Shown here: positions 16,660 through 33,330 of the stretch, piece by piece | Position numbering within the stretch: the first letter of the stretch is position 1 | Layout: every line of letters starts with the position of its first letter | NCBI GenBank assembly: GCA_964452095.1 | Contig: CAYVKX010000002.1 | Coordinates: 1-63,456, forward strand | DNA: 63,456 nt | Direction of reading: 5' to 3' | Source: an uncultured Weeksellaceae bacterium | GTDB lineage: Bacteria > Bacteroidota > Bacteroidia > Flavobacteriales > BACL11 | Position numbers and translations under genes: made by a program | Notes under the pieces: generated by a model | Databases searched by the model: none | Told to the model about the DNA's origin: nothing | The model's input: the letters and a program-made list of their open reading frames with translations, nothing else

Positions 16660-17604
16660 ATGTCAACTTTGCACCATACTTCTTTATTAAAACAAAAAGC
16701 TTTAGAATTAGGTTTTGCTTATTGTAAAGTTTCCAAAGCTGAGTTTCTTCACAAAGAAGCCCTGCAATTAGAAAGATGGCTTGCTAAAGATTATCATGGT
16801 GAGATGAGTTATATGGAAAATCATTTTGATAAAAGATTGAATCCAAAACTGTTGGTAACGGGTGCAAAATCAGTAATTTCATTGGCATTTAATTATTATT
16901 CCCCTGCAAAGCAAGAAGATAAAAATGCTCCAAAAATTTCTATTTATGCCTTTGGGAGAGATTACCATAAAGTAGTAAAGAAAAAACTAAAATTACTTTT
17001 TCAGTTTTTGCAGGATGAAATAGGAGATGTAAATGGTAGATATTTTGTGGATTCTGCTCCTGTAATGGAAAAATCTTGGGCAGAGAAAAGTGGTATTGGC
17101 TGGATTGGGAAGCACAGCAACTTAATTTCTAAAAGTCAGGGTTCTTATTTTTTCTTAGCGGAACTTATTTTGGATGTTCCACTTGAATATGATTCCCCAA
17201 TTAAAGATTATTGCGGGACTTGCACAAAATGTATTGATGCTTGCCCCACTGACGCTATTACCGAACCTTATGTGGTTGATGGGAGTAAATGTATTTCCTA
17301 TTATACTATTGAGCTAAAAAATGCTATCCCAGAAAATGTTAAGGGTAAGTTTGAAAATTGGATGTTTGGCTGTGATATTTGTCAAATGGTTTGTCCTTGG
17401 AATAAATTTTCAATTCCACATAATGAAGCTAATTTTCTACCAAAAAAAGAATTACTATCCTTTAAAAAAGAAGATTGGGAAAAGTTAGAAGTAGAAAAAT
17501 TTGATGAAATATTTGAGGGTTCGCCAATAAAACGAACGGGCTTTAAGGGCTTAAAAAGAAATATAGAATTTGTTACGAAATCTGATCGAACACTTCCAAG
17601 ATAA
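16660..17604 (+). CDS. queG: Epoxyqueuosine reductase QueG
   Basis: Ferredoxin motifs [16 protein letters not shown] and [13 protein letters not shown]; GWIGKH motif. Confidence 0.9.
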
Positions 17605-17758
17605 TTCCTTTATATTGAGAAAAAGTAGCAAGTGCCCAAATTTTTAAATGGGTCATTTCTCTTTTACTAAGCCAACGCAAGCTTTTTTGTAATTCTTTTC
17701 TAAATAGGGCTTTATCGAAACTGACTTTATTGAGGACTTTTTTACTGAATTCTAACAT
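17573..17758 (-). CDS. Small hypothetical protein (61 aa), first gene candidate upstream of nothing obvious and downstream of ubiX
   Basis: Only an ATG-initiated ORF in an otherwise empty 190-nt gap. Its 3' end overlaps the queG 3' end by 32 nt. No recognisable motif. Confidence 0.35.
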
Positions 17759-17798: not shown

Positions 17799-18371
17799 TT
17801 ATTGTTTATCCCCCCAACTATATGCTTTATTTTGTAAACCGGTAAGTGTTAATACCCTATCAATTACGGTTGCTGCAAGCTCTTCAAAGTTTTGGGGTTT
17901 GCTATAAAATGATGGTGTTGCAGGGCAAATAATTCCTCCGGCTTCTGTGATGCTTTTCATATTATTAATATGAATTAAATTGTAAGGGGTTTCCCTAGCC
18001 ACTAAGATGAGTTTTCGCCTTTCTTTCAAAATTACATCAGCAGCTCTTGTAGTCAAATCATTTGATATTCCTGCTGCAATTCTTCCCATTGTACCCATAG
18101 AGCAAGGGCAGATTATCATAGTATCAAAATTAGCCGATCCGCTTGCAAAAGGTGCCATAAAATCTTGTTTTTCATAAAAGGAAAAAGGTAATTTTTCATA
18201 CGCTTTATTGCCTAATTCGGTTTGCCAAACAAACTTTGCATTCTCACTCATCAATATGCCGACTTCTTCAATTTGTTCTTCTAACTGCATAAGTTTGTCA
18301 AACAAAACTTTTGCATAAATTGCTCCACTAGCTCCACTAACTGCAATAATTATTTTGTGTTTTTTACTCAT
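17799..18371 (-). CDS. ubiX: Flavin prenyltransferase UbiX
   Basis: KIIIAVSGASGAIYA N-terminus, PCSMGTMGRIAAG and ARETP motifs, about 190 aa. Confidence 0.9.
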   Translation of the reverse strand: MSKKHKIIIAVSGASGAIYAKVLFDKLMQLEEQIEEVGILMSENAKFVWQTELGNKAYEKLPFSFYEKQDFMAPFASGSANFDTMIICPCSMGTMGRIAAGISNDLTTRAADVILKERRKLILVARETPYNLIHINNMKSITEAGGIICPATPSFYSKPQNFEELAATVIDRVLTLTGLQNKAYSWGDKQ

Positions 18372-18964
18372 CTTATTTTATAATGAATCGCAAAACTTAA
18401 TACAGTATTGTATTGTCCTTTATTCCAACCATTTGTAGCACCAGAAGCATGAGGGCGAATTGGAATAATGGAGTTGCTAATTCTTGTATTCAAGATAATG
18501 TTATCCGTTAAATGATAATTAATTCCAGCAAAAATTCCAAAATCATATTTTTCAAAATCAGGAGAAAAATTGATTTCAGAATAATAATCATTCATTGCAG
18601 AACTAAGAATAAGTGCAGGTAAAACTCCCAATTCAATGCCTAAATTTTCACTTTGTTGCAGGTTAATACTCATTGGTACTTCTACATAAGAAAGCGTAAT
18701 TTCATCAATTTTGTATTTATGGATATTTGGATTTCTGCTTCCCTTTTGAATGTAAGTTATTTCAAATTGAAAACTAATGTTTTCTTTCGCTTTTAAGTTG
18801 GTATATGCTCCAGCAAGCAATCCAATTTTATTAAAACCACCGAGCATATCCCCTGAAACTTGTGAAGTGCTTAATCCCAGAATAACTCCACCGCCAAAAT
18901 TTTGTGCTTGAATATTTGAGAAAAGAAATCCACAAAAAAATAAGATTGCAAATCTCTTTTTCAT
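18368..18964 (-). CDS. Small outer-membrane beta-barrel (porin-family/OMP_b-brl_2-like) protein
   Basis: Signal peptide MKKRFAILFFCGFLFSNIQAQ, alternating amphipathic strands, about 200 aa. Confidence 0.6.
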   Translation of the reverse strand: MKKRFAILFFCGFLFSNIQAQNFGGGVILGLSTSQVSGDMLGGFNKIGLLAGAYTNLKAKENISFQFEITYIQKGSRNPNIHKYKIDEITLSYVEVPMSINLQQSENLGIELGVLPALILSSAMNDYYSEINFSPDFEKYDFGIFAGINYHLTDNIILNTRISNSIIPIRPHASGATNGWNKGQYNTVLSFAIHYKIR

Positions 18965-18965
18965 A

Positions 18966-19922
18966 TTATCTCAAACTAACCCCCAAACCAACTGTTGCTG
19001 TTGGGTATTCAGCAAAAGTATAATCAGCTTGTATCGTTACTACAGTAATATTAAATCTTAATCCAACATTTGCTCTTAAATTGTTTTTTGATTCAAAATC
19101 CATTGCTACTTTTTCTTCAAATTCAATTCCGCTTAATTCAAAATTTGCATCAGCTGAGAAACTAGTTGTTGAGGAATTGTACCCTATACCAGCATAACCT
19201 GTAACCATTAATAATTTTTTGGAAGCAACTAAATTAATTGTAGTAGCTTTTGTATTTAATGCAACTTTTTGCCCTGAAATTTCTAACTCAGTATTTAATG
19301 CTGTATATCCCCCTTGAAAAGATAAACTCATTGGAATCATATCTCCAATTCCTGGAATCCACTGTAATAAATCATGTTTTACACCAATTCCAAAAAGATT
19401 AACATTAACATTATCACCAATATTCATCATTGGCATAAATCTTAAGTCTATAGCTGTATTTTTAATTAAACCAATACCCGCTTGTAACATTGGTAATGGC
19501 ATAGCTGGAGTTTTGATTCCTCCTGGCATATTAAAAGGGATGCTATCTGAGCCTGGAACTGTTGATGGGTCATAATACATTGATGTGGCACTAGTACTCC
19601 CAAATATAGTAGACGCTTCATTTTCCTCAGATTTAAAAATATCTCCACCCGCTTTTTTAATGTTAAAAGTTTCAGCAGAATTTGGTATAATTACTGTATT
19701 TAAAGTAAATGTTAAATCAAAACCACCTAAATTGTGAGGTTTAGCGGTATTGTACCACCCATTATTTAGTCCAGCTCCAAAACTTTCAGCCATTGGGCTA
19801 AAATAAGCTTCAAGTATTTTTTCCCCTTGCTTTATATCTTGCCCTAAGATACTTTGTACAGTTTGACTATAGGAGCTAAATCCAATAAAGCTAGCTAAAA
19901 GTGTAAATAAATAGTTTTTCAT
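18966..19922 (-). CDS. Hypothetical outer-membrane protein with a signal peptide
   Basis: Signal peptide MKNYLFTLLASFIGFSSYSQ, Gly/aromatic-rich beta-strand pattern. No catalytic motif seen. Confidence 0.5.
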   Translation of the reverse strand: MKNYLFTLLASFIGFSSYSQTVQSILGQDIKQGEKILEAYFSPMAESFGAGLNNGWYNTAKPHNLGGFDLTFTLNTVIIPNSAETFNIKKAGGDIFKSEENEASTIFGSTSATSMYYDPSTVPGSDSIPFNMPGGIKTPAMPLPMLQAGIGLIKNTAIDLRFMPMMNIGDNVNVNLFGIGVKHDLLQWIPGIGDMIPMSLSFQGGYTALNTELEISGQKVALNTKATTINLVASKKLLMVTGYAGIGYNSSTTSFSADANFELSGIEFEEKVAMDFESKNNLRANVGLRFNITVVTIQADYTFAEYPTATVGLGVSLR

Positions 19923-19934
19923 AATTGCAGTTTT

Positions 19935-20804
19935 TTAATTATTTAGATGTGATTCTTCAACTTGCACAATTTCTTTTGTATTAGTATTGTATATATATGC
20001 AATAATTGACATATTAGCTGCATCCCAGTTACCAGCATTCCCATTTCCTAATTCAGCAGTATTTGTAGAGTAATCAATATTGTATTGCTCTAAAGTTGCA
20101 AGATCATAATTAATTACCCTTTCAATTTGCTGTCCAGCTACATAATTAGATGAGTTGGAGAGCTCCTCATCCATTAATACTGTTCTTAACACATGATTAT
20201 GTTGGTAATTCTCAATATTGTCTTGCCCATCTTTTTGCCAATTCATAATATTACTTTCTGTTAAACAGACAACTAAATTGTACTCTGAGCTTATATTATT
20301 TTTTACTTCTGATGTTATAGAAATAGAATTTTCATCAGAAGATATATGTATTGTAAAATCAACATCTTTTTTTAGTTCTAAAGCAACGGCACTTGCCCAT
20401 TCATCCTTTCCAAGTTTATGATTATCTGGGAATCCAATTCTATTCACCATTCCTCTTGGAAGTCCCATTGCTGAAATTCCATAAAAATCATCCCAATTAT
20501 CCCCCCATTGTGTTCTGAAGTCGTATTGAAAGCTTGGAGCCTGACTAGCAGGATATGGCCTTGCAAAAGACTTGCTTACATGTATTGCCATACCAATTAT
20601 TTGATATCCATAAATATCATGGATTGCATCTAATTCTCTTGCGGCATCTGGGCAGTTAGGACATAGATGCCCTGTAAAATCCTCAATTAATACTTTCTTT
20701 TCAGGATTTACATAAGAATCATAATCAGAGATAAAAGGACCATCTTCAACATCACAAGAAGTGATGATTAATATTGAACTAAGTATTGCTAAATATTTTT
20801 TCAT
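19935..20804 (-). CDS. Omp28-related thioredoxin-fold lipoprotein with a CPNC motif
   Basis: Lipobox ILIITSC; VLIEDFTGHLCPNCP resembles the Omp28-family/thioredoxin-like CxxC site. Confidence 0.6.
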   Translation of the reverse strand: MKKYLAILSSILIITSCDVEDGPFISDYDSYVNPEKKVLIEDFTGHLCPNCPDAARELDAIHDIYGYQIIGMAIHVSKSFARPYPASQAPSFQYDFRTQWGDNWDDFYGISAMGLPRGMVNRIGFPDNHKLGKDEWASAVALELKKDVDFTIHISSDENSISITSEVKNNISSEYNLVVCLTESNIMNWQKDGQDNIENYQHNHVLRTVLMDEELSNSSNYVAGQQIERVINYDLATLEQYNIDYSTNTAELGNGNAGNWDAANMSIIAYIYNTNTKEIVQVEESHLNN

Positions 20805-20807
20805 TTT

Positions 20808-22502
20808 TTAAAAACTTGATGATATACTTAAATTAAATCCGTTTGATGAAGGTACGAGTTTACAGACTCCTCCAACACAAAAGATTCCTTCTCTTTTCTT
20901 TCCGTAACCAATCTCAAAACGGTTTGCTCCTTTTATAAATCCTGCATTTAGATTTACATAATGCAACTGTTTTGAAACATCTTCATTCCCCCAGTTATAC
21001 ATGTCTTGTATTGCAAAAAACCAATGAGGTGAAATGGTATATTCTAAAAGTCCCATACTCCAATCTCCTTCAGCTGGCTCTTCCATTCCATTTTCATAAG
21101 CTCCCCCATGTGCAGAATAATCTTCTAGCTGTTTGGAATTTAACATTTGTAATTCCATTCTTAAAGAATGTCCTTTCTTAATTTTGTAGCTTATATCTGT
21201 AATTAAGATTGTTGAGTTAAGCACTCCATAATCTCCTGGAACATGACCTTCTAAAAAATCTTTATTGTAAGTTTGGTTTGCTATTACAAAATTAGCTTTT
21301 ATTTTTTTACTTATTTTTTTATTTATTTCAAGATTAATATCTTGAAAATAACGTTCTTGTTCAAAACAAAGTAGCATTGGAGTATAATTATCTTGGTCAT
21401 TTAGAAATGAATGACCATAATCACCGCTTAATCCATTCATTCTGGAATAATTTAAGGCTAATTTTGTGCCGTATTTACCTCCTAGCACGCTTCCTTTTTT
21501 AATTTTTAAATAAATATCAGCCTGTATACCAATCTCACCATTAAACTGTGTTGCATATTGATAAAGTGCTAGAAGAGAATAAGCATGAGGTTTACTTAAA
21601 GCTGGAATGTAATTTATTATATATGCTTTGCCGTCTTTATCTCTATCGGATTTAAAATTCATGTTATCTATTCTATGTAATTCTACTGAAAAACCAAATC
21701 CTCTTTTTGAGAAAGTAATATTATTTTTAAATGCACTTCCACTAGCATAGTTCATTTTGCTTTCAGTTAACATATTCGCAGGATCGTTAATCTTATAAGC
21801 AAACTCACTATAATAGTTCCAGTTACCACGGATTATGTTTAATCGACTTGCATAAGCGCTAACATTTTGTGGTATTTTAAAGATAATATTTTCTCTTTCT
21901 TGGTATCGACTCACAAAGCTTCCCCCTAAGATTACTTTTGTTTTAGATTTAGCATTGAATAATTCATTGATATTTATCTCTCCGTCAGCCCCTCTAAAAA
22001 TACCATCAGCATAATCAAAGTGAGCTCTGCTTTTCCCAATAAAGCTTTTTAAATAGACCCCTTTCAATGGTCTATATTTTAATCTTACTCCATCCATAGC
22101 ATTGTCAATCCCTAGCCCTTTTTCCTCATAACTTCTAAAGATTAATCCGCTCCCTAATTGTTCATAATAATTTCCTGCTGTAACTTCTAAGCCATCAATG
22201 CTGTAAGTTGCATATCTATACGGAATTCCATTTCCTTTAAATTCAGGGTCGTAATCAGCTAAAGCGTTTAAGTAACTTTCATAACGTAATCCAGTCGCAA
22301 AATTCCCTTTAGTATAGTTAAGATTTAAATAGGCGTTATTTAATATTACCTCATCAGCTGCTTCTGCTCCAATAAGCTCATCCTCTTGATAAGATTGTAA
22401 ATTTAAATTTAAATCACCATGAATTTCTCCGGTATTTACTTCCTGAGAGAATCCTGAAAAAGAAGCTCCAAAAACCACCAAAAGAGATACAATTTTCTTC
22501 AT
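20808..22502 (-). CDS. Large outer-membrane beta-barrel protein (DUF6029-like)
   Basis: Signal peptide, 564 aa, alternating strand pattern, C-terminal ...LSISSSF with a terminal Phe. Confidence 0.55.
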   Translation of the reverse strand: MKKIVSLLVVFGASFSGFSQEVNTGEIHGDLNLNLQSYQEDELIGAEAADEVILNNAYLNLNYTKGNFATGLRYESYLNALADYDPEFKGNGIPYRYATYSIDGLEVTAGNYYEQLGSGLIFRSYEEKGLGIDNAMDGVRLKYRPLKGVYLKSFIGKSRAHFDYADGIFRGADGEININELFNAKSKTKVILGGSFVSRYQERENIIFKIPQNVSAYASRLNIIRGNWNYYSEFAYKINDPANMLTESKMNYASGSAFKNNITFSKRGFGFSVELHRIDNMNFKSDRDKDGKAYIINYIPALSKPHAYSLLALYQYATQFNGEIGIQADIYLKIKKGSVLGGKYGTKLALNYSRMNGLSGDYGHSFLNDQDNYTPMLLCFEQERYFQDINLEINKKISKKIKANFVIANQTYNKDFLEGHVPGDYGVLNSTILITDISYKIKKGHSLRMELQMLNSKQLEDYSAHGGAYENGMEEPAEGDWSMGLLEYTISPHWFFAIQDMYNWGNEDVSKQLHYVNLNAGFIKGANRFEIGYGKKREGIFCVGGVCKLVPSSNGFNLSISSSF

Positions 22503-22505
22503 AAA

Positions 22506-23006
22506 TTATTTCGCTATTTTTTGGATTTGTTCTAAAAGCTCATCTTCATCTCCATCATTATACCCTGGATGATGCCAAACGATTTCATTTTTTCCGTTAA
22601 GTAAAAATGTGTGAGGAACAGTTTGCACTCCCATAGCTCTTTTAAGTTCACTATTAGCGTCTAAATAAACTTCATAATCCCAATCAGATGCATTCACATA
22701 AGGAGCTACTCTCATCATTGATCTTGTGTCATCAATAGAAATTGCTACAAGTTTAACTCCTGTTTCATCTTGCCAATCCTCATATACTTCAGCAATATTA
22801 TTTAATTCTTTTTTACAGGGCTTACACCAAGTGGCCCAAAAAGAAATTACAATTGGGTTTCCGTCATTTTCTAAATTTGTAATATTGAAATTACTTCCAT
22901 CTAAAGTTTTTACCTCCATTGATGGAAGCTTTCTTTCTTCTTGTGAAAAGCAGTTGGCTGCTATTAGTACAACAGTCGCGAATGTTAAAATTAGTTTTGT
23001 TCTCAT
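22506..23006 (-). CDS. TlpA/ResA-family periplasmic thiol:disulfide oxidoreductase
   Basis: Signal peptide, and FWATWCKPCKKELP-like active site WCKPC in a ~165-aa thioredoxin fold. Confidence 0.85.
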   Translation of the reverse strand: MRTKLILTFATVVLIAANCFSQEERKLPSMEVKTLDGSNFNITNLENDGNPIVISFWATWCKPCKKELNNIAEVYEDWQDETGVKLVAISIDDTRSMMRVAPYVNASDWDYEVYLDANSELKRAMGVQTVPHTFLLNGKNEIVWHHPGYNDGDEDELLEQIQKIAK

Positions 23007-23071
23007 TTTTATTGTTTTTTATGGTTTGCTAAAATAATTATTTATATCAGTTAATTGAATTTTATAGCAAT

Positions 23072-23100
23072 AAAAAAGCCAGCTTATGCTGGCTTTTTTA
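23072..23100 (-). terminator. Intrinsic (bidirectional-looking) terminator downstream of the T9SS redoxin gene
   Basis: aaaaa-agccagc-ttat-gctggct-ttttt. Confidence 0.75.
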
Positions 23101-23116
23101 TTTTAAAAGTTATTAT

Positions 23117-24616
23117 TTACTTAATGATAGTAATCTTATTTGTAATTACTTTATCGTTAATAATAAGATTTACAAAATAAATTCCTTCCGAAATTCCTGA
23201 AGTAGTAATTGGCATAAAATGCTGTCCTTCTGAAAGCATGCCAATATTATTGCTGTAAACCACTTCCCCAATTACATTAGTAATATTTAATTGTGCATTA
23301 CTCCTTTCAGTTGTAGAAAATGTAATGTTTGCAATGTCATTTGTTGGGTTAGGGTAAATTGAAATATTATTTGCAATACTATTATTATCAATAGAACTCA
23401 AGTTTCCAGTTTTAAACTGTGAAGATTCTTCATCAGCAAAACTACCGCCAGATCCTAATATTGTTCCGTTTCCATCTGTTACAGTATAACTTCCCGCTCC
23501 ATATCCAGCATTTATTCCATCACCATAACTATCAGTAATTGTAAAAGTGTGGCACTCATTAGGATTTAATGATGTAGTTATTGGAGTTTGAGTAGTAGTT
23601 CCAGCCGACCCTAAATCATTGTAAGGACCACCATTTGCTACAGTTAACCCAGAACTTGTTTTAATACTCCATCTTGTTTCAGACCCATAAGCATCTGTTA
23701 CAATTTGTACAGTTACATTAGTACTAGTATTTTGAGTAGCCATTACTACATTAAATGCAATAGTTTGATTGTTTGAAGGGTCATTATCTACCCCTCCATT
23801 TGGGTTAGTTACTTCAATAGTTATTGCTTCATTTCCAGTAAGACCAATAAGAGCTGGAAGTGTAATGTCATCTGTATCGTAAGTTAATAAGTTTCCAGCC
23901 CATTGGATAATAGTATCAGAAACTCCATTTACAAATACTTCAATAGTTGCTGATGTTAAAGGAGTTAATCCATAATTTTGAATTTTTATTTCAGGAGTTA
24001 AACCTCCTTCACAAGTTAGAGTTTCTCCAATATAATCAAATGATCTTATATCATTATTGAATGATGCAGGAGCCGGGCAAGTAGCTACATAAGCATAAGG
24101 ATTAGTGCTTTGCCCTATTTCTCTAATAATTCTATCAGGACAAATCATATAAATGGTAGGGAAATAAGCAATAGAATAAGCAGTATTTATTGCCTGAGTG
24201 TTTGCAGAACCATCAGTAGAAATTTGAGGGAACGGACATCCAGTAATCCAATCACCAACAGTATTGCAGCCAGTTCCGTACATACATGCAACAGCATTTC
24301 CATCCGCTTCAACAGCAAATACCATCACATCATCTGTTGTGTTAGAATCTACATCCGGATATCCTGCAGGACCATGTTGCGTGTAAAGGTTTTCCATTGC
24401 GCCTGTATTTTTGTATGCCCAACATGGGCTACACCATACGGCATAAAAATCTACAATAACTGTATATCCACTATCTAAGTAAGTATACAAATTGTGTGTT
24501 ACCCCATGAACATCAGTAAGTGTAAAATCAGGTGCTACTGAGCCATCTGGTAATTGTGCTTCTGCATTGTCAATTGAGAATAAAGCGACAATTGCAATTA
24601 GTAAAATCTTTTTCAT
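23117..24616 (-). CDS. T9SS-secreted multidomain protein with an N-terminal redoxin/thioredoxin-like domain (WCSPC)
   Basis: Signal peptide MKKILLIAIVALFSIDNAEAQ, APDFTLTD...VIVDFYAVWCSPCW, Ig-like middle domains, CTD ISIYPNPTNDIANITF...GIYFVNLIINDKVITNKITIIK. The start is moved to the ATG at 24616. Confidence 0.75.
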   Translation of the reverse strand: MKKILLIAIVALFSIDNAEAQLPDGSVAPDFTLTDVHGVTHNLYTYLDSGYTVIVDFYAVWCSPCWAYKNTGAMENLYTQHGPAGYPDVDSNTTDDVMVFAVEADGNAVACMYGTGCNTVGDWITGCPFPQISTDGSANTQAINTAYSIAYFPTIYMICPDRIIREIGQSTNPYAYVATCPAPASFNNDIRSFDYIGETLTCEGGLTPEIKIQNYGLTPLTSATIEVFVNGVSDTIIQWAGNLLTYDTDDITLPALIGLTGNEAITIEVTNPNGGVDNDPSNNQTIAFNVVMATQNTSTNVTVQIVTDAYGSETRWSIKTSSGLTVANGGPYNDLGSAGTTTQTPITTSLNPNECHTFTITDSYGDGINAGYGAGSYTVTDGNGTILGSGGSFADEESSQFKTGNLSSIDNNSIANNISIYPNPTNDIANITFSTTERSNAQLNITNVIGEVVYSNNIGMLSEGQHFMPITTSGISEGIYFVNLIINDKVITNKITIIK

Positions 24617-24648
24617 TTTTTCTTGTTTTTTAAAGGTTAATAGAACTG

Positions 24649-24656
24649 CAAATATA
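24649..24656 (-). promoter_or_regulatory. -7 box TATATTTG (minus strand) for the T9SS redoxin gene
   Basis: The plus strand reads caaatata, 32 nt upstream of the ATG at 24616. Confidence 0.45.
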
Positions 24657-24748
24657 ATACGAAAAGACATTAAAATCACGAAAATCATAGTTTTTTATTT
24701 TTGTCTTACGCGTTCAAATGCAATTGTTAATATTTCAGATTTATTTTG

Positions 24749-24756
24749 TATATTTG
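24749..24756 (+). promoter_or_regulatory. -7 box TATATTTG for the Cys-rich T9SS gene
   Basis: 16 nt upstream of the ATG at 24773. It lies inside the longer track ORF that starts at 24746. Confidence 0.45.
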
Positions 24757-24772
24757 CATAAAATTAATAAAA

Positions 24773-25471
24773 ATGATTAAAAAAATATTTATACTTTCTT
24801 TAGTTTTTATTGCAGTATTAACTGTAGATGCTCAAAGTTTACAACTTACTGGGGATGTGACAGTTCCAACTTCTGACCCTTGCGTTACAACTCATGCTTA
24901 TATTTTAGTTAAAAATACTTCTAATAAAGATTTGGATGTGGTTTGTCAGAAATTTATAATTGATACTACTGCTGGTACTTTAAATTATTTTTGTTGGGGC
25001 GGATATTGCTATCCAGCTGAGACTTATATTTCTCCATTTCTGCAATTTCTTCCACCAGGAGCTTCTTCTGATAGTGCTGGTTTTGGTGGCTATTATGATG
25101 CTTATTGTGCAGATGCTGAAGCTACAATAAAATATTGTTTTTACCCTGATACTGATCCAACTGATGCGTCTTGCTTAACAGTCCTTTATAACGGAACGGT
25201 AAGTGCTATAGTTGATTTAGTTTCTGAGGGGGAAGTAGGTGAATTTTTCCCTAATCCAGCTAAGGAATATATAAATGTAGAATACAAATTAGATAGAAAT
25301 AGCACGCTTACTATTGTAGATATTTTAGGAAATAAGGTAAAAGAAATTGACCTGAGTAATTCAGGTTTTCAGAGCATTTATATTTCTGATTTGCAAAATG
25401 GAATTTATTTTGGAAGATTTTCTACCAATGGAAACTTAGTGAAGATGAAAAAAATTATTGTAAAAAAATAG
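24773..25471 (+). CDS. Small Cys-rich T9SS cargo protein of unknown function
   Basis: Signal peptide MIKKIFILSLVFIAVLTVDAQ, 8 Cys in about 110 aa, CTD FFPNPAKEYINVEY...GIYFGRFSTNGNLVKMKKIIVKK. Confidence 0.7.
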   Translation: MIKKIFILSLVFIAVLTVDAQSLQLTGDVTVPTSDPCVTTHAYILVKNTSNKDLDVVCQKFIIDTTAGTLNYFCWGGYCYPAETYISPFLQFLPPGASSDSAGFGGYYDAYCADAEATIKYCFYPDTDPTDASCLTVLYNGTVSAIVDLVSEGEVGEFFPNPAKEYINVEYKLDRNSTLTIVDILGNKVKEIDLSNSGFQSIYISDLQNGIYFGRFSTNGNLVKMKKIIVKK

Positions 25472-25498
25472 CAAATAAAGAACCAAAAGTTATAAAAA

Positions 25499-25530
25499 CC
25501 CTATGCTTAAAAGTATAGGGTTTTGTTTTT
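25499..25530 (+). terminator. Intrinsic terminator
   Basis: ccctatgc-ttaaaa-gtataggg hairpin followed by ttttgttttt. Confidence 0.6.
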
Positions 25531-25550
25531 ATCAAAATCACATATTTTAG

Positions 25551-25558
25551 TAGATTTG
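25551..25558 (+). promoter_or_regulatory. -7 box TAGATTTG for ruvA(-sprA)
   Basis: TAnnTTTG match, 20 nt upstream of the ruvA ATG. Confidence 0.45.
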
Positions 25559-25578
25559 TTTTTTAAACCAAAACACAA

Positions 25579-26160
25579 ATGATAACACACATTCAAGGAA
25601 GATTGGTGGAAAAAACACCAACTTATGTAGTAATTGATTGTAATGGAATTGGCTACAAACTGCACATTTCCCTACAAACTTTCACCAATATTAAAGAAGA
25701 AAATTGTAAGCTTTTCTCCCATCTTTCAGTAAAGGAAGATTCGCATACGCTTTATGGTTTTTCTGATGAGGATGAAAGAACTCTTTTTAGAAATTTAATA
25801 TCTGTTTCTGGGGTAGGACCAAGTACTGCACAAGTAGTGCTTTCTACTTTTTCTCCACAAGAAACTTGCCAATATATTATTTCGGCTGATGTTGCTGCTC
25901 TGCAAAGTGTGAAAGGAATTGGAGCTAAAACCGCCCAAAGAATAATTATTGATTTGAAAGACAAATTAGGCAAGGGAATTACTACTACTGACATTCCTTT
26001 ATATCAGAACAATGATTTAAGAAATCAAGCGTTATCTGCACTAGTTGCATTGGGTTTTAGCAAAAAAGTAGCCGAGCAGAAAGTAGATAAAACTCTGAGA
26101 AACAGCTCAGAAGAATTATCGGTAGAAGCTTTGGTAAAATCTGCTTTAAGTGCAATGTAA
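25579..26160 (+). CDS. ruvA: Holliday junction DNA-binding protein RuvA
   Basis: OB-like N-terminus MITHIQGRLVEK, HhH motifs SVSGVGPSTAQ and VKGIGAKTAQRI. Confidence 0.93.
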   Translation: MITHIQGRLVEKTPTYVVIDCNGIGYKLHISLQTFTNIKEENCKLFSHLSVKEDSHTLYGFSDEDERTLFRNLISVSGVGPSTAQVVLSTFSPQETCQYIISADVAALQSVKGIGAKTAQRIIIDLKDKLGKGITTTDIPLYQNNDLRNQALSALVALGFSKKVAEQKVDKTLRNSSEELSVEALVKSALSAM

Positions 26161-26169
26161 TTTACTAGT

Positions 26170-29100
26170 TTGAGCAGAAAAAAAATATACATACTACTAG
26201 CAGTTTCTGTACTGTTTTCTATGCAGTCATTCTCTCAAAATGACAGCACATTATCTTATCCTTTTTCTGGAGATGAAAGTGGAGGTTTGTATATGAACAA
26301 TCCTAGTATTTTCAACACTTTTGTAGAGTACGACCCAGTTAGCAATCAATATTATGAGTGGCAAAGAATAGGCGATAGAAATGTAGGGTTGCCCAGAGTA
26401 ATGAGCTTTCAGGAGTATCAGCAATACCAATTGGAAAAATCAACTGAAACTTATTGGGATTTGCGAACTGGAGAAAGAAAAACAAAGCAAACTTCTGCTT
26501 TTGGCTTACCTAAACTTTTCATTCCAGGACAAGCATTTGATAGGATTTTTGGAGGAAATTCTGTAGATATTCGTCCGCAAGGGTCGGCAGAACTTATTTT
26601 TTCATTAAGAATTAATCGTTTAGATAATCCCTCTCTTCCTGAAGAACAAAGGCGAACCACCTCTTTTGATTTTGAAGAAAAAATACAAATGAATGTAGTT
26701 GGAAAAATTGGAGAAAAACTAAAACTCACTACTAATTACAATACCGAAAGCACTTTTGATTTTGAAAACCAAATGAAGTTGGAATACACAGGTGGTGAGG
26801 ACGAAATTATTAAAAAACTAGAAGTTGGAAATGTTAGTTTGCCATTAAACGGAACCCTTATTACCGGAAGTACTTCCCTTTTTGGAATGAAGGCACAATT
26901 GCAATTCGGGAGAACTACAATCACCTCTATTTTATCCCAACAAAAAAGTAAAACTTCTGAAGTGGAGGTGAGTGGAGGTGCACAAACCACAGAGTTTGAT
27001 ATTTATGTAGATGATTATGAGGCGAACAAGCATTTCTTTTTGGCGCATTATTTTAAAGAACAATATGATGTAGCACTGGCGAATTTACCTTTTGTAAATT
27101 CTGGAATAAATATCACAAAAATTGAAGTGTGGATTACCAACAAAACAGGAACTACTAATAATACCAGAAATATAGTTTCATTTCTAGATTTAGGAGAAAC
27201 AGAAATTTATAATAATGACCCTAATTTTGCAAATGGGTTAAAACCAAATGCACAATTTCCTGATAATGTAGAAGCAAATTATTTATACGATAATTTAACA
27301 AATAATTTTAATGCCGCTCGTGATATCAATCAAGTAAATTCTGCTTTTGGTCCTTTTTCAGTATTCTTCAAAGCTGCTCAAGATTATGAAAAATTAGAAA
27401 GAGCCAGACAACTTACTTCTTCAGAATATACTTTGCACCCGCAATTGGGCTATATTTCCTTAAATCAAGCACTAAATAATGATGAGGTTTTAGCAGTTGC
27501 TTTTCAATACACAATCGGCAGCAACACTTATCAAGTTGGGGAGTTAAGCACCACTGGCCCAACCGCTCCAGATGCACTTTTTGTAAAACTCTTGAAAGGA
27601 ACTAATTTTACACCAAAATTACCAAATTGGCATTTAATGATGAAAAACATTTATGCCATTGGGGCTTATCAAATGAGTAGTAATTCTTTTGTATTGGATG
27701 TTGTGTATGAAAATACTGAGGAATCTGGAGGGCTTACTAATTATATTCCAGAAGGAATAATAGATGGAATCCCACTTATAAAAGTATTGAATTTGGATAA
27801 TTTGAACTCTCAACAAGATAAGCAATCAGATGGGGTTTTTGATTTTATTGAAGGTATTACTGCAAAATCTTCAAATGGAAGAATTATTTTTCCTGTGCGT
27901 GAGCCATTTGGCAGCTATTTGAAAAGCCAATTTTCCGACCCCACTCTTGCCGATAAATATGTGTATCAAGCCCTTTATGATTCTACTATAACCATTGCTC
28001 AGCAATATCCAGAGCTGAATAAATTCAGATTAAAGGGAAGCTATCAAGCATCTTCTGGGGCAGAAATTTCCTTAAATGCTATGAATGTTCCAGAGGGCTC
28101 AGTAACGGTAACGGCTGGCTCACAAAAGTTAGTAGAAAACCAAGATTATACGGTAGATTATATGCTCGGAAGAGTAACAATTATCAATCAAGGAATTTTG
28201 AATTCTGGCGTTCCAATTAAAATTTCATTAGAAAATAATGCACTTTATGGCATTCAAAATAAAACACTAATTGGTACACATATTGATTATGAAATCAATA
28301 AGGATTTTATTGTTGGAGCAACAGTTTTGAACCTTACCGAACGCCCATATACTGTAAAAATAAATACTGGAGATGAGCCAATTTCTAACACCATTTGGGG
28401 ATTAGACGGAACTTATCAAAAGAAGTCGCCTTTTATCACCAAAATGGTGGATAAGCTTCCCTTTTTGGAAACCAAAGCAAAATCTACTATTGTGGCAACT
28501 GCCGAATTTGCTCACTTAATTCCTGGTCACCATAAATCTTTGGGGAATTCTGGCGTTTCTTATATTGATGATTTTGAGGCAAGTAAAACGGGAATCGATA
28601 TGAAAAATATGGGAGCCTGGTTTTTATCATCTATTCCTCAAGGGCAAGAAAATATTTTCCAAAATGCTAGTGAAAATAATGATTTAATAAGTGGTTTTCA
28701 AAGGTCAAAAGTAGCTTGGTATACCATTGACCCTTTATTTTACAGAAATACATCTGTAACACCTCCTGGTATAAACACCTCCATCACGCTTCCAAATGGG
28801 AATACCATTGCTCAGCAATCTTACCATTATTCCAGAGAGGTTTTAGAAAAAGAAGTTTTCCCGAATAAAGACCCTGATATTGGAAGTCAAATTTCCAATT
28901 TAGCACTTTTGGATGTGGCTTATTATCCTAATAAAAGAGGACCTTACAATTATAATGTAACGGATTTAAATAGTGATGGAAGTTTGCAAAATCCTACTGC
29001 AAAATGGGGAGGGCTAATGCGAAAAGTAGAGACCAATGATTTTGAGGCAGCCAATATTGAGTTTATAGAATTCTGGATGATGGATCCTTTTAATTCTGAG

Positions 29101-32100
29101 GATGGAGACGAATTTCATAGTGGTGGCGATTTGTATTTTCATTTAGGAAATGTATCGGAAGATGTGCTTAAAGATGGTTATAAAAGTTTTGAAAATGGAT
29201 TGCCTATTTCAAGCACAGTGGAAAATGTAGATACTACAGTTTGGGGAAGAGTGCCCACTAATTTTTCTATTGTAAATGCTTTTGATAACGATCCTGATTC
29301 CAGAGTATATCAGGATGTTGGTTTTGATGGTTTAAAAAATTCGGAGGAAAAATTATTTTTTGATGATTATATTCAGCAAATTGCAAATACCCCAAGTTTA
29401 GGGACATCTTCAGGGGCTTATCAAAATGCAGAAAACGATCCTTCTGCCGATAATTACCATTATTATAGAGGTAGCGATTTTGACAATAATCAAACCAAAA
29501 TTTTAGATAGATATTTGAATTTTAATAATATGGATGGAAATTCTGTAACTACTGATAATTCCCCTGAATCCTATCCGACTTCCTCCACTAGTATTCCCAA
29601 TACTGAGGATATAAATAAAGATAATACTTTAAGCGAATCAGAAAGTTATTTTCAATACAAAGTTCATCTTTTCCCAAATATGGATGTGGGCGATAGTTAT
29701 ATTTCAGATGTTTTTACTGCCAATGTTAAAACTGAAAATGGGAATAGCCGTTCTGTGAAGTGGTATCAGTTTAGGGTGCCTATTTACAAACCCGACAAAA
29801 CAGTTGGTGGTATTCAGGATTTTAAATCTATCCGATTTATGCGTATGGTTTTTGCTGATTTTCAGCAGCCAATAGTTTGCCGATTTGCAACCTTAGATTT
29901 GGTAAGAGGGGAGTGGAGAAGATACAATTTTGACCTTTCTTCTCCAGGGGAATACATTCCTGTAGATGATGAGGATAACACGCTTTTTGATGTAACGGCT
30001 GTAAATGTGGAAGAAAATGGAAAAAGAAGTCCTATAAATTATGTAGTTCCTCCAGGAATTGAACAAGAAATAGATAATACAACAACAACTCTTAGGAAAC
30101 AAAACGAGCAATCCTTAGTTTTGAAAGTGTGCGATTTAAAAGATGGAGATTCAAGGGCAGCTTACAAAACTGCCGATTTGGATGTTCGTTCTTACAAAAG
30201 AATTAAAATGTTTGTTCATGCTGAGGGGAAGAATGATGATTTGAAAGATGGCGATTTTTCTTGTTTTATTCGTTTAGGAACGGATTTTGTTTCTAACTAT
30301 TACGAATATGAAGTTAGCTTGAAAGCCACTGCTCATGAAGCTAGTAGCGCTAATGCAATTTGGCCATCTTCCAATCAAATTGACATTGCTTTTGAAGAGT
30401 TCCAAAAGGCAAAACAAATAAGAAATGATGCAATTAGAAGTGGTACGCACTCCAATGTTTCTGATCCTTTTATTAAATATTTATCCAATGGGAAAAAGAT
30501 TCAAATTGTAGGAAATCCGAATTTGGCAAGAGTAAAAACAATAATGATTGGGATTAGAAATCCTAAAAAATTAAACATTCAAGATGCAGATGATGGACTT
30601 CCTAAATGTGGAGAAATTTGGGTAAATGAATTACGCCTTACGGATTTTGATGAATATGGCGGATGGGCGGCTAATTCTCGGCTTACTACTCGCCTTGCCG
30701 ATTTTGGAACGGTAACTTTTGCAGGAAGTATGAGCACCATTGGCTTTGGTAGTATTGAGAAAAAAATTAATGAACGCCAAAGAGTAAATGCCTATCAATA
30801 TGATATTTCTTCAACTTTCGAATTGGGGAAATTTTTCCCGGAAGATTATGGGGTAAAAATTCCAATGTATGTTGGCGTATCGGAGGCGATTGCAAACCCA
30901 CAATACAATCCGCTTGACCCTGATATTCTGTTCAAAACCACCTTAGAAACTTTGGATAGCAAAGCCGAAAAAGATTCCTTAAAACACATTACACAAGATT
31001 ATGTAAAACGAAAAAGCATCAATTTTACCAATGTGAGAAAAATGCCTTCTATGAATAATAAAAAAGGCAAAACAGCAAAACCAAAAAAACCAAAAGTGTA
31101 TGATATTGAGAATGTGTCGCTTTCTTATTCGTTCAATGAAACTTTTATTAGAAATATCAATACAAAAGAAAACACGACAAAACTCTATAGAGGAGCAATT
31201 ACTTATAATTTCCACACCACTCCGAAAAACATCAAACCATTTACAAAATCTCCTTTGCTAAAATCAAAACATTTGCGGCTTATAAAAGATTTTAATTTCA
31301 ATACTATGCCAAAATCTTTCTCATTTAGAACTGATTTGGAAAGGCATTACAATAAAACGGAACTCAGAAACATCAACAATTCCAATATGCTTATTTTCCC
31401 TACTTACAATAAGTTTTTTAATTGGAACAGAATGTATGAGGTAAAATATGATTTGACAAGAACGCTAAAAGTGGATTTGGCAGTAAATAATAGGGCGATA
31501 ATTGATGAGCCAGCTGGCGACCTTTCCAAAGACGATCCTAACTATAAAGAAAAAAGAGATACAATTTGGCAAAATTTCTGGGATTTTGGAAGGGCAACTC
31601 TGTACCACCAAACTACCAATGTAAATTATCAAGTTCCTTTAAATAAAATTCCTTTTTTGAATTTCCTTTCGCTTAACACCAGGTATAGCGCAAATTACGA
31701 TTGGACGGGAGCGCCAAAATCATTGCAATATTTAGGGGGAAATATTCAAAACTCCAATACCAAGCAATATAATGGGCAAATAAATTTGACTACTCTTTAT
31801 AATAAAGTGCCGTATTTCAAAAAAATAAACCAATCGGCAAGAGGAGGTAGAAACCAAAGAGGAAGAAATAATCAGCAAAACACAGAGGAGGAAGATAAGA
31901 AAAAAGATAGATACGAGATTTTTAAATATATGACTCGTTTTATGCTGAGCGTGAAAAATGTGTCAGTAAATTATTCTGAAAATAGAGGAACTTTCTTGCC
32001 AGGATTTATGCCAAAACCACACTTTATGGGACAGCAATGGAGTATGATGGCACCAGGACTTCCCTTTGTTTTTGGAAGCCAGAATGACATTAGATACAGG

Positions 32101-33330
32101 GCAGCTTCAGATGGGTGGCTTACCGGAGACACTACTTTAAATACGCTTTACAAAACCAATTTTTCTTCTAATTTAACTTTAAGAAGTACGGTAGAGCCAA
32201 TAAAACAATTTAGAATTGAACTTACTGCCAACAAATCAAAATCTTTAAATAGCCAAGAGTATTTTAGGGCTGGAAATAATGGAAAATTTACATCTTTTAG
32301 CCCAACAGAAACAGGAGGTTTTAGTATTTCTATAATTTCTTGGAGTACGGCATTTTTAAAAGATGATGAGCAATACTCTTCCAAAACTTTTGCAAAATTT
32401 AGAAACTACAGAAATGAAATTGCAAAAAGATTGGCAGCAGAAAACCCTGATTTTAATGGAGGTATAAATCCTTTAACGGGCTTTCCGCTAGAGTCATATA
32501 TTGATGGAACAACAGGAGATACAATATATACAGGCGGTTATGGTCCGGCATCCCAAGATGTAATGATTCCTGCATTTTTGGCTGCTTATACCGGAAAAGA
32601 TGCATTGGGCGTTTCTTTGAAAAAATTCCCTGTTGTTCCTTTGCCCAATTGGCGAATTACTTACAATGGGCTTACAAAAGTGAAATTCATCAAAAGATAT
32701 TTTGAAACTTTCACACTTGGACACGCATACAGAAGTACTTATAGTGTTGGTTCTTTTGCATCCAATCTGGATTATAAAGATGAGAGCGGTGAGGTGCAAA
32801 TGAACCTTAATAATTTGAGTTATCATCCCAAATATGATATTGCACAAGTTTCTATTAATGAGCAATTCAGTCCGCTTTTCAAAATCGATATGACTTGGAA
32901 AAATTCTTTGCTTACACGATTTGAAATCAAAAAAAGCAGAATGCTTTCCTTATCCCTAAGTAATAATCAACTCACAGAAGTTGCCTCTAACGAATATGTA
33001 ATTGGTACGGGATTCAGAATTCAAGATGTGTCTTTCAATTTTCGCTCGGCCGGAAGAAGTAAAAAAATTAAAAGCGATTTGGACTTAAAATTGGATTTGA
33101 ATATCAGAAATAACAGAACGGTAATAAGAAAAGTAGTAGAAGATGAGGAGCAAATTACGGCTGGGCAACAAATAATTAGCATCAAATTTTCTGCTGATTA
33201 TGTGGTGAATGAAAGGTTAAATGTAAAAGCTTTTTACGATAAAGTAATTACAAATCCGTTTCTTTCCACCACTTTTCCAGGGGCAATTACCAATGCCGGA
33301 TTTAGTATAAGATTTACTTTGGCAGGATAA
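26170..33330 (+). CDS. sprA: T9SS translocon / cell-surface protein SprA (2386 aa)
   Basis: Size, signal peptide, Bacteroidota-specific giant beta-barrel character, and the conserved ruvA-sprA-gcvH neighbourhood. The only possible initiation codon is TTG at 26170. Confidence 0.85.
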   Translation: MSRKKIYILLAVSVLFSMQSFSQNDSTLSYPFSGDESGGLYMNNPSIFNTFVEYDPVSNQYYEWQRIGDRNVGLPRVMSFQEYQQYQLEKSTETYWDLRTGERKTKQTSAFGLPKLFIPGQAFDRIFGGNSVDIRPQGSAELIFSLRINRLDNPSLPEEQRRTTSFDFEEKIQMNVVGKIGEKLKLTTNYNTESTFDFENQMKLEYTGGEDEIIKKLEVGNVSLPLNGTLITGSTSLFGMKAQLQFGRTTITSILSQQKSKTSEVEVSGGAQTTEFDIYVDDYEANKHFFLAHYFKEQYDVALANLPFVNSGINITKIEVWITNKTGTTNNTRNIVSFLDLGETEIYNNDPNFANGLKPNAQFPDNVEANYLYDNLTNNFNAARDINQVNSAFGPFSVFFKAAQDYEKLERARQLTSSEYTLHPQLGYISLNQALNNDEVLAVAFQYTIGSNTYQVGELSTTGPTAPDALFVKLLKGTNFTPKLPNWHLMMKNIYAIGAYQMSSNSFVLDVVYENTEESGGLTNYIPEGIIDGIPLIKVLNLDNLNSQQDKQSDGVFDFIEGITAKSSNGRIIFPVREPFGSYLKSQFSDPTLADKYVYQALYDSTITIAQQYPELNKFRLKGSYQASSGAEISLNAMNVPEGSVTVTAGSQKLVENQDYTVDYMLGRVTIINQGILNSGVPIKISLENNALYGIQNKTLIGTHIDYEINKDFIVGATVLNLTERPYTVKINTGDEPISNTIWGLDGTYQKKSPFITKMVDKLPFLETKAKSTIVATAEFAHLIPGHHKSLGNSGVSYIDDFEASKTGIDMKNMGAWFLSSIPQGQENIFQNASENNDLISGFQRSKVAWYTIDPLFYRNTSVTPPGINTSITLPNGNTIAQQSYHYSREVLEKEVFPNKDPDIGSQISNLALLDVAYYPNKRGPYNYNVTDLNSDGSLQNPTAKWGGLMRKVETNDFEAANIEFIEFWMMDPFNSEDGDEFHSGGDLYFHLGNVSEDVLKDGYKSFENGLPISSTVENVDTTVWGRVPTNFSIVNAFDNDPDSRVYQDVGFDGLKNSEEKLFFDDYIQQIANTPSLGTSSGAYQNAENDPSADNYHYYRGSDFDNNQTKILDRYLNFNNMDGNSVTTDNSPESYPTSSTSIPNTEDINKDNTLSESESYFQYKVHLFPNMDVGDSYISDVFTANVKTENGNSRSVKWYQFRVPIYKPDKTVGGIQDFKSIRFMRMVFADFQQPIVCRFATLDLVRGEWRRYNFDLSSPGEYIPVDDEDNTLFDVTAVNVEENGKRSPINYVVPPGIEQEIDNTTTTLRKQNEQSLVLKVCDLKDGDSRAAYKTADLDVRSYKRIKMFVHAEGKNDDLKDGDFSCFIRLGTDFVSNYYEYEVSLKATAHEASSANAIWPSSNQIDIAFEEFQKAKQIRNDAIRSGTHSNVSDPFIKYLSNGKKIQIVGNPNLARVKTIMIGIRNPKKLNIQDADDGLPKCGEIWVNELRLTDFDEYGGWAANSRLTTRLADFGTVTFAGSMSTIGFGSIEKKINERQRVNAYQYDISSTFELGKFFPEDYGVKIPMYVGVSEAIANPQYNPLDPDILFKTTLETLDSKAEKDSLKHITQDYVKRKSINFTNVRKMPSMNNKKGKTAKPKKPKVYDIENVSLSYSFNETFIRNINTKENTTKLYRGAITYNFHTTPKNIKPFTKSPLLKSKHLRLIKDFNFNTMPKSFSFRTDLERHYNKTELRNINNSNMLIFPTYNKFFNWNRMYEVKYDLTRTLKVDLAVNNRAIIDEPAGDLSKDDPNYKEKRDTIWQNFWDFGRATLYHQTTNVNYQVPLNKIPFLNFLSLNTRYSANYDWTGAPKSLQYLGGNIQNSNTKQYNGQINLTTLYNKVPYFKKINQSARGGRNQRGRNNQQNTEEEDKKKDRYEIFKYMTRFMLSVKNVSVNYSENRGTFLPGFMPKPHFMGQQWSMMAPGLPFVFGSQNDIRYRAASDGWLTGDTTLNTLYKTNFSSNLTLRSTVEPIKQFRIELTANKSKSLNSQEYFRAGNNGKFTSFSPTETGGFSISIISWSTAFLKDDEQYSSKTFAKFRNYRNEIAKRLAAENPDFNGGINPLTGFPLESYIDGTTGDTIYTGGYGPASQDVMIPAFLAAYTGKDALGVSLKKFPVVPLPNWRITYNGLTKVKFIKRYFETFTLGHAYRSTYSVGSFASNLDYKDESGEVQMNLNNLSYHPKYDIAQVSINEQFSPLFKIDMTWKNSLLTRFEIKKSRMLSLSLSNNQLTEVASNEYVIGTGFRIQDVSFNFRSAGRSKKIKSDLDLKLDLNIRNNRTVIRKVVEDEEQITAGQQIISIKFSADYVVNERLNVKAFYDKVITNPFLSTTFPGAITNAGFSIRFTLAG

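Follow-up and report, generated by a model that had tools for sequence, protein, structure and literature searches.

The stretch of DNA analyzed here, referred to below as the window, comprises 63,456 nucleotides (nt) from an uncultured Weeksellaceae bacterium (GenBank assembly GCA_964452095.1, contig CAYVKX010000002.1, positions 1 to 63,456). On its minus strand, six open reading frames (ORFs) follow one another closely and encode a TlpA-like thioredoxin, a DUF6029 beta-barrel, an Omp28-type lipoprotein, a DUF6588 protein, a small beta-barrel and the flavin prenyltransferase UbiX (Table 1). An earlier note on this DNA, made from the sequence alone, had read these genes as a gap-free operon for one envelope redox or biogenesis system. 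The six minus-strand ORFs, their coordinates and the junctions that it gave (four gaps, of 3, 3, 12, and 1 nt, followed by an overlap of 4 nt) were all recovered exactly in the ORF list, and the families held in Pfam and NCBIfam profile searches of the window proteins (TlpA-like, DUF6029, Omp28, DUF6588, OMP_b-brl_2, and UbiX). The block is probably a composite of at least two unrelated functions, and the TlpA-like, DUF6029, and Omp28-type genes constitute the unit conserved across Bacteroidota. The components of this module are members of catalogued families.

Table 1. Positions of the six-gene block, its members, and adjacent features in the window (T9SS, type IX secretion system; CTD, C-terminal domain)
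Feature	Position	Strand	Length	Remarks
Six-gene block	23006..17799	-		six ORFs
TlpA-like protein	22506-23006	-	166 aa	
DUF6029 barrel	20808-22502	-	564 aa	
Omp28-type lipoprotein	19935-20804	-	289 aa	
DUF6588 protein	18966-19922	-	318 aa	with signal peptide
Small barrel, OMP_b-brl_2	18368-18964	-	198 aa	
UbiX flavin prenyltransferase	17799-18371	-	190 aa	cytoplasmic
61-codon ORF	17573..17758	-	61 codons	directly after ubiX
Intrinsic-terminator-like hairpin	23069..23102	-		GCCAGC-ATAA-GCTGGC, A and T tracts on the flanks
T9SS-exported thioredoxin protein	23117..24688	-		N-terminal TlpA/redoxin-like domain (WCSPC), type-A CTD
PorA-family T9SS-CTD protein	24746..25471	+		divergent from the module

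The junctions within the block are, in order, +3, +3, +12, +1, and -4 nt. They are as tight as had been claimed, but the tightness itself is nothing special. Among the same-strand junctions in the window, 22 of 44 are 12 nt or shorter (median, 12.5 nt), the coding density is about 95%, and the unrelated pair ruvB-queG is separated by 3 nt. Thus, tight junctions are the norm in this genome and provide no evidence for functional coupling. A strong hairpin lies between the T9SS thioredoxin gene, on its 3' side, and the TlpA gene (dG of -20.7 kcal/mol, z of -5.4; 0 of 200 shuffles were equally stable), and the six genes therefore have an upstream boundary of their own. No space for terminators was seen inside the block, and from the sequence it is plausible that the six genes form one transcript beginning after the terminator at about 23085. 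The hairpin was found by eye, whereas the terminator scanner reported no minus-strand site at 23069-23102; since it overlooked so strong a structure, its negatives are unreliable in this window. Scans for sigma-70 promoters and for the Bacteroidota -7 box gave no enrichment of either over shuffles.

The conservation of the block was examined in two samples and a set of close relatives. The even phylum sample consisted of 301 Bacteroidota genomes with a completeness of at least 90%, from which 55 DUF6029 loci were fetched and their ORFs labeled with hidden Markov models (HMMs) built from relatives. The second, independent sample consisted of 80 named genomes with identity-ranked loci (counts out of 78 or 79), retrieved by a search for related loci with a 14-sequence barrel alignment as the query; it covered Flavobacteriales, Vicingaceae, Bacteroidales, Chitinophaga, Sphingobacteriaceae, Hymenobacter, and Lentimicrobium. 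The close-relative set contained 29 genomes from the same family and order as the window genome. In these 29 relatives, the entire ruvA-to-ruvB stretch is conserved along with its housekeeping flanks, which reflects general synteny; thus, the distant comparisons are the informative ones.

In the even sample, DUF6029 was present in 80 of 301 genomes and Omp28-family matches in 78 of 301. The second sample gave a TlpA-like gene directly upstream of DUF6029 and on the same strand in 67 of 78 loci and an Omp28-type gene directly downstream in 71 of 79. In the even sample, the TlpA-like gene adjoined DUF6029 in 39 of 53 loci, and 3 further loci had it no more than three genes away; among the remaining misses, some were caused by spurious antisense ORFs masking the TlpA gene. 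Of the 52 genomes in which DUF6029 was clear, 47 had a match to the Omp28-type NCBIfam model NF033782 at a distance of about 6 kb or less. When the 118 neighbors of DUF6029 that remained unlabeled were compared with Pfam, no family recurred in more than five. The conserved unit across Bacteroidota is therefore TlpA-like plus DUF6029 plus Omp28-type. For these three genes, the proposal of a single envelope unit stands, and the synteny in other genomes on which the earlier note had made it depend is retained; it does not extend to DUF6588, the small barrel, and UbiX, which are considered below.

The TlpA-like protein matched AhpC-TSA (E value of 6e-20) and Redoxin (3e-16) and was also above the cut-off for Thioredoxin_8. 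Its N terminus reads as a signal peptide, and a Gln follows the predicted cleavage site. The active site WCKPC is formed by C61 and C64 (nt 22815-22826), and these cysteines are kept in 77/79 and 78/79 homologues, respectively. Among PDB entries, the protein matched 2m72, an "uncharacterized thioredoxin-like protein," with an E value of 5.6e-44; we take this entry to be PG2175 of Porphyromonas gingivalis. The window genome encodes one DsbD_TM protein elsewhere. Six matches to TlpA-like paralogues were obtained in the same genome, about three of them convincing and three weak (E values above 1e-5).

The barrel aligned with DUF6029 (PF19494) over the full length of the profile (positions 1 to 538) at 587 bits, against a cut-off of 27. 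Its AlphaFold2 (AF2) model (predicted local distance difference test score [pLDDT] of 86, predicted template modeling [TM] score of 0.81) has about 24 long strands joined by alternating short and long connections. The earlier note had overlooked that the barrel carries an invariant cysteine pair of its own. C542 and C547 lie in FCVGGVCK, within a short hairpin of residues 539 to 550 (nt 20853-20888), and are kept in 81/83 and 82/83 homologues; in a 57-sequence alignment, C542, G544, G545, and C547 are invariant. The protein carries the motif G-[IL]-F-C-[VI]-G-G-[VI]-C-[RK] ahead of the last barrel strand, and this motif alone retrieves at least 594 genomes. The hairpin is located between strand 527-536 and the last strand, 553-563, with two-residue turns on both sides. 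Topology was read from the strand order of the model alone. Counting back from the C-terminal strand, whose end has to face the periplasm, the long conserved loops, among them residues 113 to 135 (YEQFGSG motif) and 280 to 322, should be extracellular, and the CVGGVC hairpin would be the last extracellular loop (L12), with its tip pointing back toward the membrane.

Comparison of the barrel sequence with the PDB revealed no relative, and Foldseek returned only generic large barrels (AlgE, FimD, MtrB, and OprC) at TM-scores of 0.44 or less. The barrel homologue search yielded only marine relatives of 79 to 100% identity. In the phylum sample, one family (f42, loci L112-L114) has a distant barrel of about 505 aa that matches DUF6029 at only 1e-7 to 1e-14; its direct upstream neighbor is still TlpA-like, and thioredoxin-like genes lie downstream. 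Judging from these sequences, the module seems to extend to barrels that are not well recognized by the Pfam DUF6029 model.

The third component is laid out as a lipobox with Cys17, an N-terminal thioredoxin-fold domain, and a C-terminal immunoglobulin-like (Ig-like) Omp28 domain. It matched Omp28 (PF11551) at 66.7 bits (cut-off, 34.9) and gave weak matches to DUF1223 and to an "Omp28-related selenoprotein" model. The CxxC is C48-P-N-C51 (nt 20652-20663), and the AF2 model (pLDDT, 93.5) places it inside a predicted thioredoxin fold, in agreement with the thioredoxin-like context that had been proposed for CPNC. Lack of conservation of these cysteines in orthologues would have spoken against the earlier proposal; they are kept in 65/66 and 64/66 orthologues, and C17, T44, C48, C51, P52, P116, and R207 are invariant in 61 further sequences. 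No T9SS CTD (Por_Secre_tail) was matched by the lipoprotein in the Pfam scan; it has a lipobox instead.

The best fold match of the lipoprotein in the PDB was HBP35 of P. gingivalis (5y1a; Foldseek E value of 3.9e-10, 283 columns, TMq of 0.60), followed by the DUF1223 protein 2axo and then the Omp28 domain 2r2c, which was also matched at the sequence level (E value of 7e-7). HBP35 is a T9SS-exported surface protein whose insulin-reductase (thioredoxin) activity requires C48 and C51 (PMC2907840). Both proteins have the same layout over their full length, namely, an N-terminal thioredoxin-fold domain bearing a CxxC and then an Ig-like beta-sandwich. They differ in that HBP35 is a T9SS cargo with a CTD, attached to anionic lipopolysaccharide (A-LPS), whereas the window protein is a lipoprotein without a CTD, and their identity is only 14%. 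In addition, HBP35 is PG0616, which is not beside a DUF6029 barrel, in contrast to PG2173-2175.

Two observations on the wider Omp28/HBP35-type family were made. On contig 18 of the same genome (24522-25034, minus strand), a 701-aa frame carries a thioredoxin-like N-terminal domain of this type (NF033782 positions 21 to 187, E value of 7e-15), and similar domains occur in 600- to 860-aa frames of many Bacteroidota, which suggests a wider family of large surface proteins predicted to carry it. At one locus (L071, G254:C3:199150-200040), the Omp28 orthologue next to DUF6029 contains one in-frame TGA within the match; it is a possible selenocysteine variant, in line with the existence of the NCBIfam selenoprotein model.

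Two conserved partners lie just upstream of the block and had been missed. The first is a T9SS-exported thioredoxin protein, with matches to AhpC-TSA (1.3e-5), Por_Secre_tail (42.7 bits), and ResA-like proteins (1.9e-9). Its true start is probably near 24616, because a typical signal peptide (MKKILLIAIV...) begins 24 codons into the ORF and a TATATTTG box is present at 24649-24656, upstream of the second ATG. The second partner, previously described as a "Cys-rich T9SS cargo," is divergently encoded, likely from the ATG at 24773 as read from the sequence. It matched Por_Secre_tail at 50.6 bits, and its N-terminal domain had no match in Pfam. When a profile of 46 homologues was compared with the PDB, positions 28 to 98 matched 6kjk, the "N-terminal domain of PorA," with an E value of 7.7e-7, and the aligned region includes both cysteines of the protein. 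Together with a length of 232 to 241 aa, against 246 aa for PorA, the FimH-like N-terminal domain homologous to PorA and the type-A CTD identify it, at the profile level, as a predicted member of the PorA family. The two cysteines, typically in FCWGGxCY (here FCWGGYCY), are kept in 74/75 and 75/75 homologues, and this motif resembles the FCVGGVC of the barrel.

Homologues of both partners were found within four genes upstream of DUF6029 in the second sample, the T9SS thioredoxin in 39 of 78 loci and the PorA-like protein in 40 of 78; the two genes are thus frequent companions of the module in roughly half of the carriers. With an HMM restricted to the PorA N-terminal domain, a copy was detected within about 7 kb of DUF6029 in 22/29, 21/55, and 40/80 loci. 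The window genome has only two copies of this domain, so a chance co-location with the module is estimated at about 1%. The second copy (contig 38, 15487-15918, plus strand; 39% identity; 221-aa frame) is located away from the module. In the window, the porA-like gene, ruvA, and sprA, which encodes the T9SS translocon, are co-directional and close together (24746-33330, plus strand). Three genomes of a different family within the same class likewise have sprA some 6 kb away from the module, on the side of the porA-like gene.

A phyletic link between the module and T9SS was also considered. SprA is present in every one of the 80 DUF6029 genomes. However, 63 of the 64 SprA-negative genomes come from a single family, and 157 genomes have SprA but no DUF6029, which makes the pattern uninformative.

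With confidence a little above even, we regard the TlpA, DUF6029, and Omp28 proteins as a DsbD/TlpA-fed thiol-disulfide module at the outer membrane or cell surface. DsbD would keep the periplasmic TlpA paralogue reduced. If the predicted topology holds, the L12 hairpin of the barrel and the CPNC of the lipoprotein would each provide a cysteine pair at the outer membrane or surface, and TlpA would feed or maintain these pairs. The lipoprotein would act as a thioredoxin-type catalyst on surface proteins, and the module as a whole may reduce or isomerize surface-protein disulfides. The likeliest clients would be the PorA-like protein, given the likeness of its cysteine motif to that of the barrel, and T9SS cargo. 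The DUF6588, small-barrel, UbiX, and 61-aa ORFs would then be lineage-specific neighbors packed in by genome compaction.

Known systems offer partial parallels. The DsbD/CcdA-fed proteins TlpA, ResA, and CcmG (DsbE) have the thioredoxin fold, a WCxxC, and a signal peptide in common with the window protein, which likewise has a DsbD in its genome; unlike in those systems, its conserved partners do not belong to cytochrome c maturation or to the Sco/Cox type but are an outer-membrane barrel and a lipoprotein. By analogy only, MtrCAB (PDB 6r2q) likewise pairs a large barrel with two redox partners encoded together with it, a periplasmic protein and a surface lipoprotein, and MtrB was among the generic Foldseek matches of the barrel (TM-score, 0.39). 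In contrast to MtrCAB, the window module has no hemes and no sequence relation to it, and thiol-disulfide exchange would take the place of electron hopping.

Several points weigh against a thiol-disulfide module of this kind. The TlpA-like protein scores far below the NCBIfam equivalog cut-offs, reaching none of the named equivalogs ResA, StoA, TlpA, and DsbE (86 versus 170 bits and 46 versus 230 bits). Similarly, the lipoprotein reaches 128.4 bits with the NCBIfam subfamily model NF033782, under the cut-off of 150, and is thus a divergent member; this cut-off was reached in only 7 of the 301 genomes of the even sample. The residues after its lipid-bearing Cys (D-K/V-I/V) are not a textbook Bacteroidota surface-export signal; the lipoprotein may be oriented to the periplasmic face or to the surface, and electrons may flow in either direction. 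The cysteine pair of the barrel may be a purely structural disulfide. With 157 of 237 SprA genomes lacking DUF6029, the module is not a general part of T9SS. Finally, about 35 to 40% of the identity-ranked loci have the small barrel and UbiX after the module, and a lineage-specific functional link with them is possible.

In P. gingivalis, PorA (PG2172) is required, via PorXY-SigP, for the T9SS to be fully expressed, arrives at the surface by an unknown route in mutants whose T9SS translocation machinery is missing, and must be linked to PorY by an unknown factor (PMC7712824). Neither the cysteines nor the neighbors of PorA are discussed in that work. Within the PorA family, T9SS-independent surface exposure and control of PorXY-SigP are known for the P. 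gingivalis protein only. The Omp28 protein of this species is PG2173 and the thioredoxin-domain protein is PG2175 (PMC13744359), while PG2174 is an uncharacterized vesicle protein (PMC4335976) and would be the DUF6029 barrel. Thus, PorA-family, Omp28-domain, and TlpA-like components also bear consecutive locus tags (PG2172 to PG2175) in P. gingivalis; the arrangement differs in that porA is beside Omp28 there, whereas in the window the porA-like gene is divergent from the TlpA side. Among papers naming PGN_0120-0126 or PG2173-2175, no functional data were found.

The trio could be a device that works across the outer membrane as a thiol-disulfide relay or exporter and serves the PorA-family protein, as a cysteine-based analogue of a barrel-sheathed conduit; the barrel would carry or dock PorA through the matching cysteine hairpins, and periplasmic TlpA and the lipoprotein would set its redox state. 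We consider this unlikely; if true, it would explain both the T9SS-free route of PorA to the surface and the link from surface PorA to PorXY-SigP. Slightly more doubtful still is the notion that the DUF6029 barrel is itself a T9SS-independent route or anchor by which the PorA-like protein gets to the surface. On this view, TlpA would maintain the PorA cysteines in reduced form during passage, and at the outer membrane the disulfide would be re-formed or exchanged by the Omp28-type lipoprotein; the barrel FCVGGVC would be a docking or exchange element, and the module would feed the signal that runs from PorA to PorXY-SigP. This notion is consistent with the cysteine-hairpin motif that the barrel and the PorA family have in common, with the presence of a PorA N-domain homologue near DUF6029 in 38 to 76% of loci, in genomes having one or two copies, and with the co-directional porA-like, ruvA, and sprA genes; moreover, about 24 strands put the barrel in the size class of usher translocons. 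However, roughly half of the DUF6029 loci have no PorA-like gene nearby, and the Foldseek matches to ushers are as generic as the others (TM-score of 0.44 or less). The cysteine hairpin common to the barrel and the PorA family is a short motif whose likeness could be convergent.

Barrel-lipoprotein gene pairs are a common transport layout in Bacteroidota, and the barrel and lipoprotein may accordingly act as a solute channel and its surface-binding lipoprotein, for heme or for polysaccharide export. In that case, binding would be the use of the thioredoxin fold, and the role of TlpA would be limited to maturing the cysteines of the two proteins. HBP35 binds hemin and is needed under hemin limitation (PMC2907840), HHpred detects similarity of Wzi-like barrels to DUF6029 (PMC9603273), and AlgE was the top Foldseek match of the barrel. 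The AlgE match is weak, however (TMq, 0.38), and about 85% of loci retain a dedicated TlpA. In addition, the CxxC and the predicted cis-Pro-like P116 of the lipoprotein are invariant, which favors catalysis over binding alone. We thus consider such a channel improbable. The polysaccharide-export variant in particular, proposed for DUF6029 (PMC9603273), was rejected, since no OPX, Wzz, or other polysaccharide-export family recurs beside DUF6029 and neither OPX nor Wzz was found among the 118 unlabeled neighbors in the Pfam scan.

The distal genes behave differently from the trio. The DUF6588 protein matched PF20230 at 286 bits, and its sequence had no relative in the PDB. It was found within three genes of DUF6029 in only 8 of 79 loci of the second sample, and the linkage to the module is limited to the window's own family and two sister families. 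In other families of the order, three genomes having both genes carry DUF6588 on other contigs, and in two genomes it is present where DUF6029 was not found. DUF6588 is therefore a lineage-specific insertion outside the conserved module. The small barrel (33.9 bits with OMP_b-brl_2, PF13568; cut-off, 27) is a frequent but not general downstream neighbor, present in 33 of 79 loci of the second sample and in 3 loci, all of one other family, of the even sample.

UbiX matched TIGR00421 at 182 bits (cut-off, 108.9). Its start overlaps the stop of the small-barrel gene by 4 nt, an overlap restricted to the closest relatives. It is downstream of the module in 28 of 79 loci of the second sample; by shared flanks and titles, these 28 appear to come mostly from the window's own order. 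In the even sample, neither UbiX nor DUF6588 was near the barrel in any of 53 loci. A UbiD gene is on another contig of the same genome, and UbiX is a passenger gene. A 60- to 63-aa ORF follows UbiX at the same place and with the same length in many related loci. The 61-codon ORF of the window had no match in Pfam and, by this recurrence, is probably a real small gene closing the unit.

Accordingly, the meaningful coupling of ubiX to the envelope genes that had been suggested was not borne out. That all six genes serve one envelope redox or biogenesis pathway is very improbable: the short junctions, the terminator ahead of the block, and the small barrel and then UbiX after the module in 28 to 33 of 79 loci are in its favor, but half of the window junctions are equally tight, DUF6588 is rare beside DUF6029 and unlinked or independent elsewhere, and UbiX is a cytoplasmic enzyme whose UbiD partner is encoded elsewhere and which is absent from all even-sample loci, so that the synteny data largely refute it.

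A literature search found no paper describing the trio, its link to PorA, or the cysteine pair of the barrel. Here, the new elements are the test of the distal genes, the identification of the PorA family at the profile level, the cysteine-hairpin motif common to barrel and PorA family, and the neighbor scan bearing on the polysaccharide reading. For this window, the useful result is a negative one: the ubiX coupling and the six-gene "operon" are the outcome of genome compaction and not a new pathway.

For the phylum, the trio is of wider interest. In Gram-negative bacteria, what is understood of disulfide chemistry ends at the periplasm, which leaves the question of how thioredoxin-type proteins at the outer membrane or surface of Bacteroidota, such as HBP35, Omp28, and their relatives, are kept active. 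The trio, conserved in Bacteroidota from marine, soil, gut, and oral habitats, is a candidate for the missing link, in which a DsbD-type reductive branch would be tied to a large barrel and a thioredoxin-fold lipoprotein. In addition, its frequent pairing with a PorA-family gene brings two questions of T9SS biology within reach of experiment, namely, the T9SS-independent route of PorA to the surface and the mediator between PorA and PorY.

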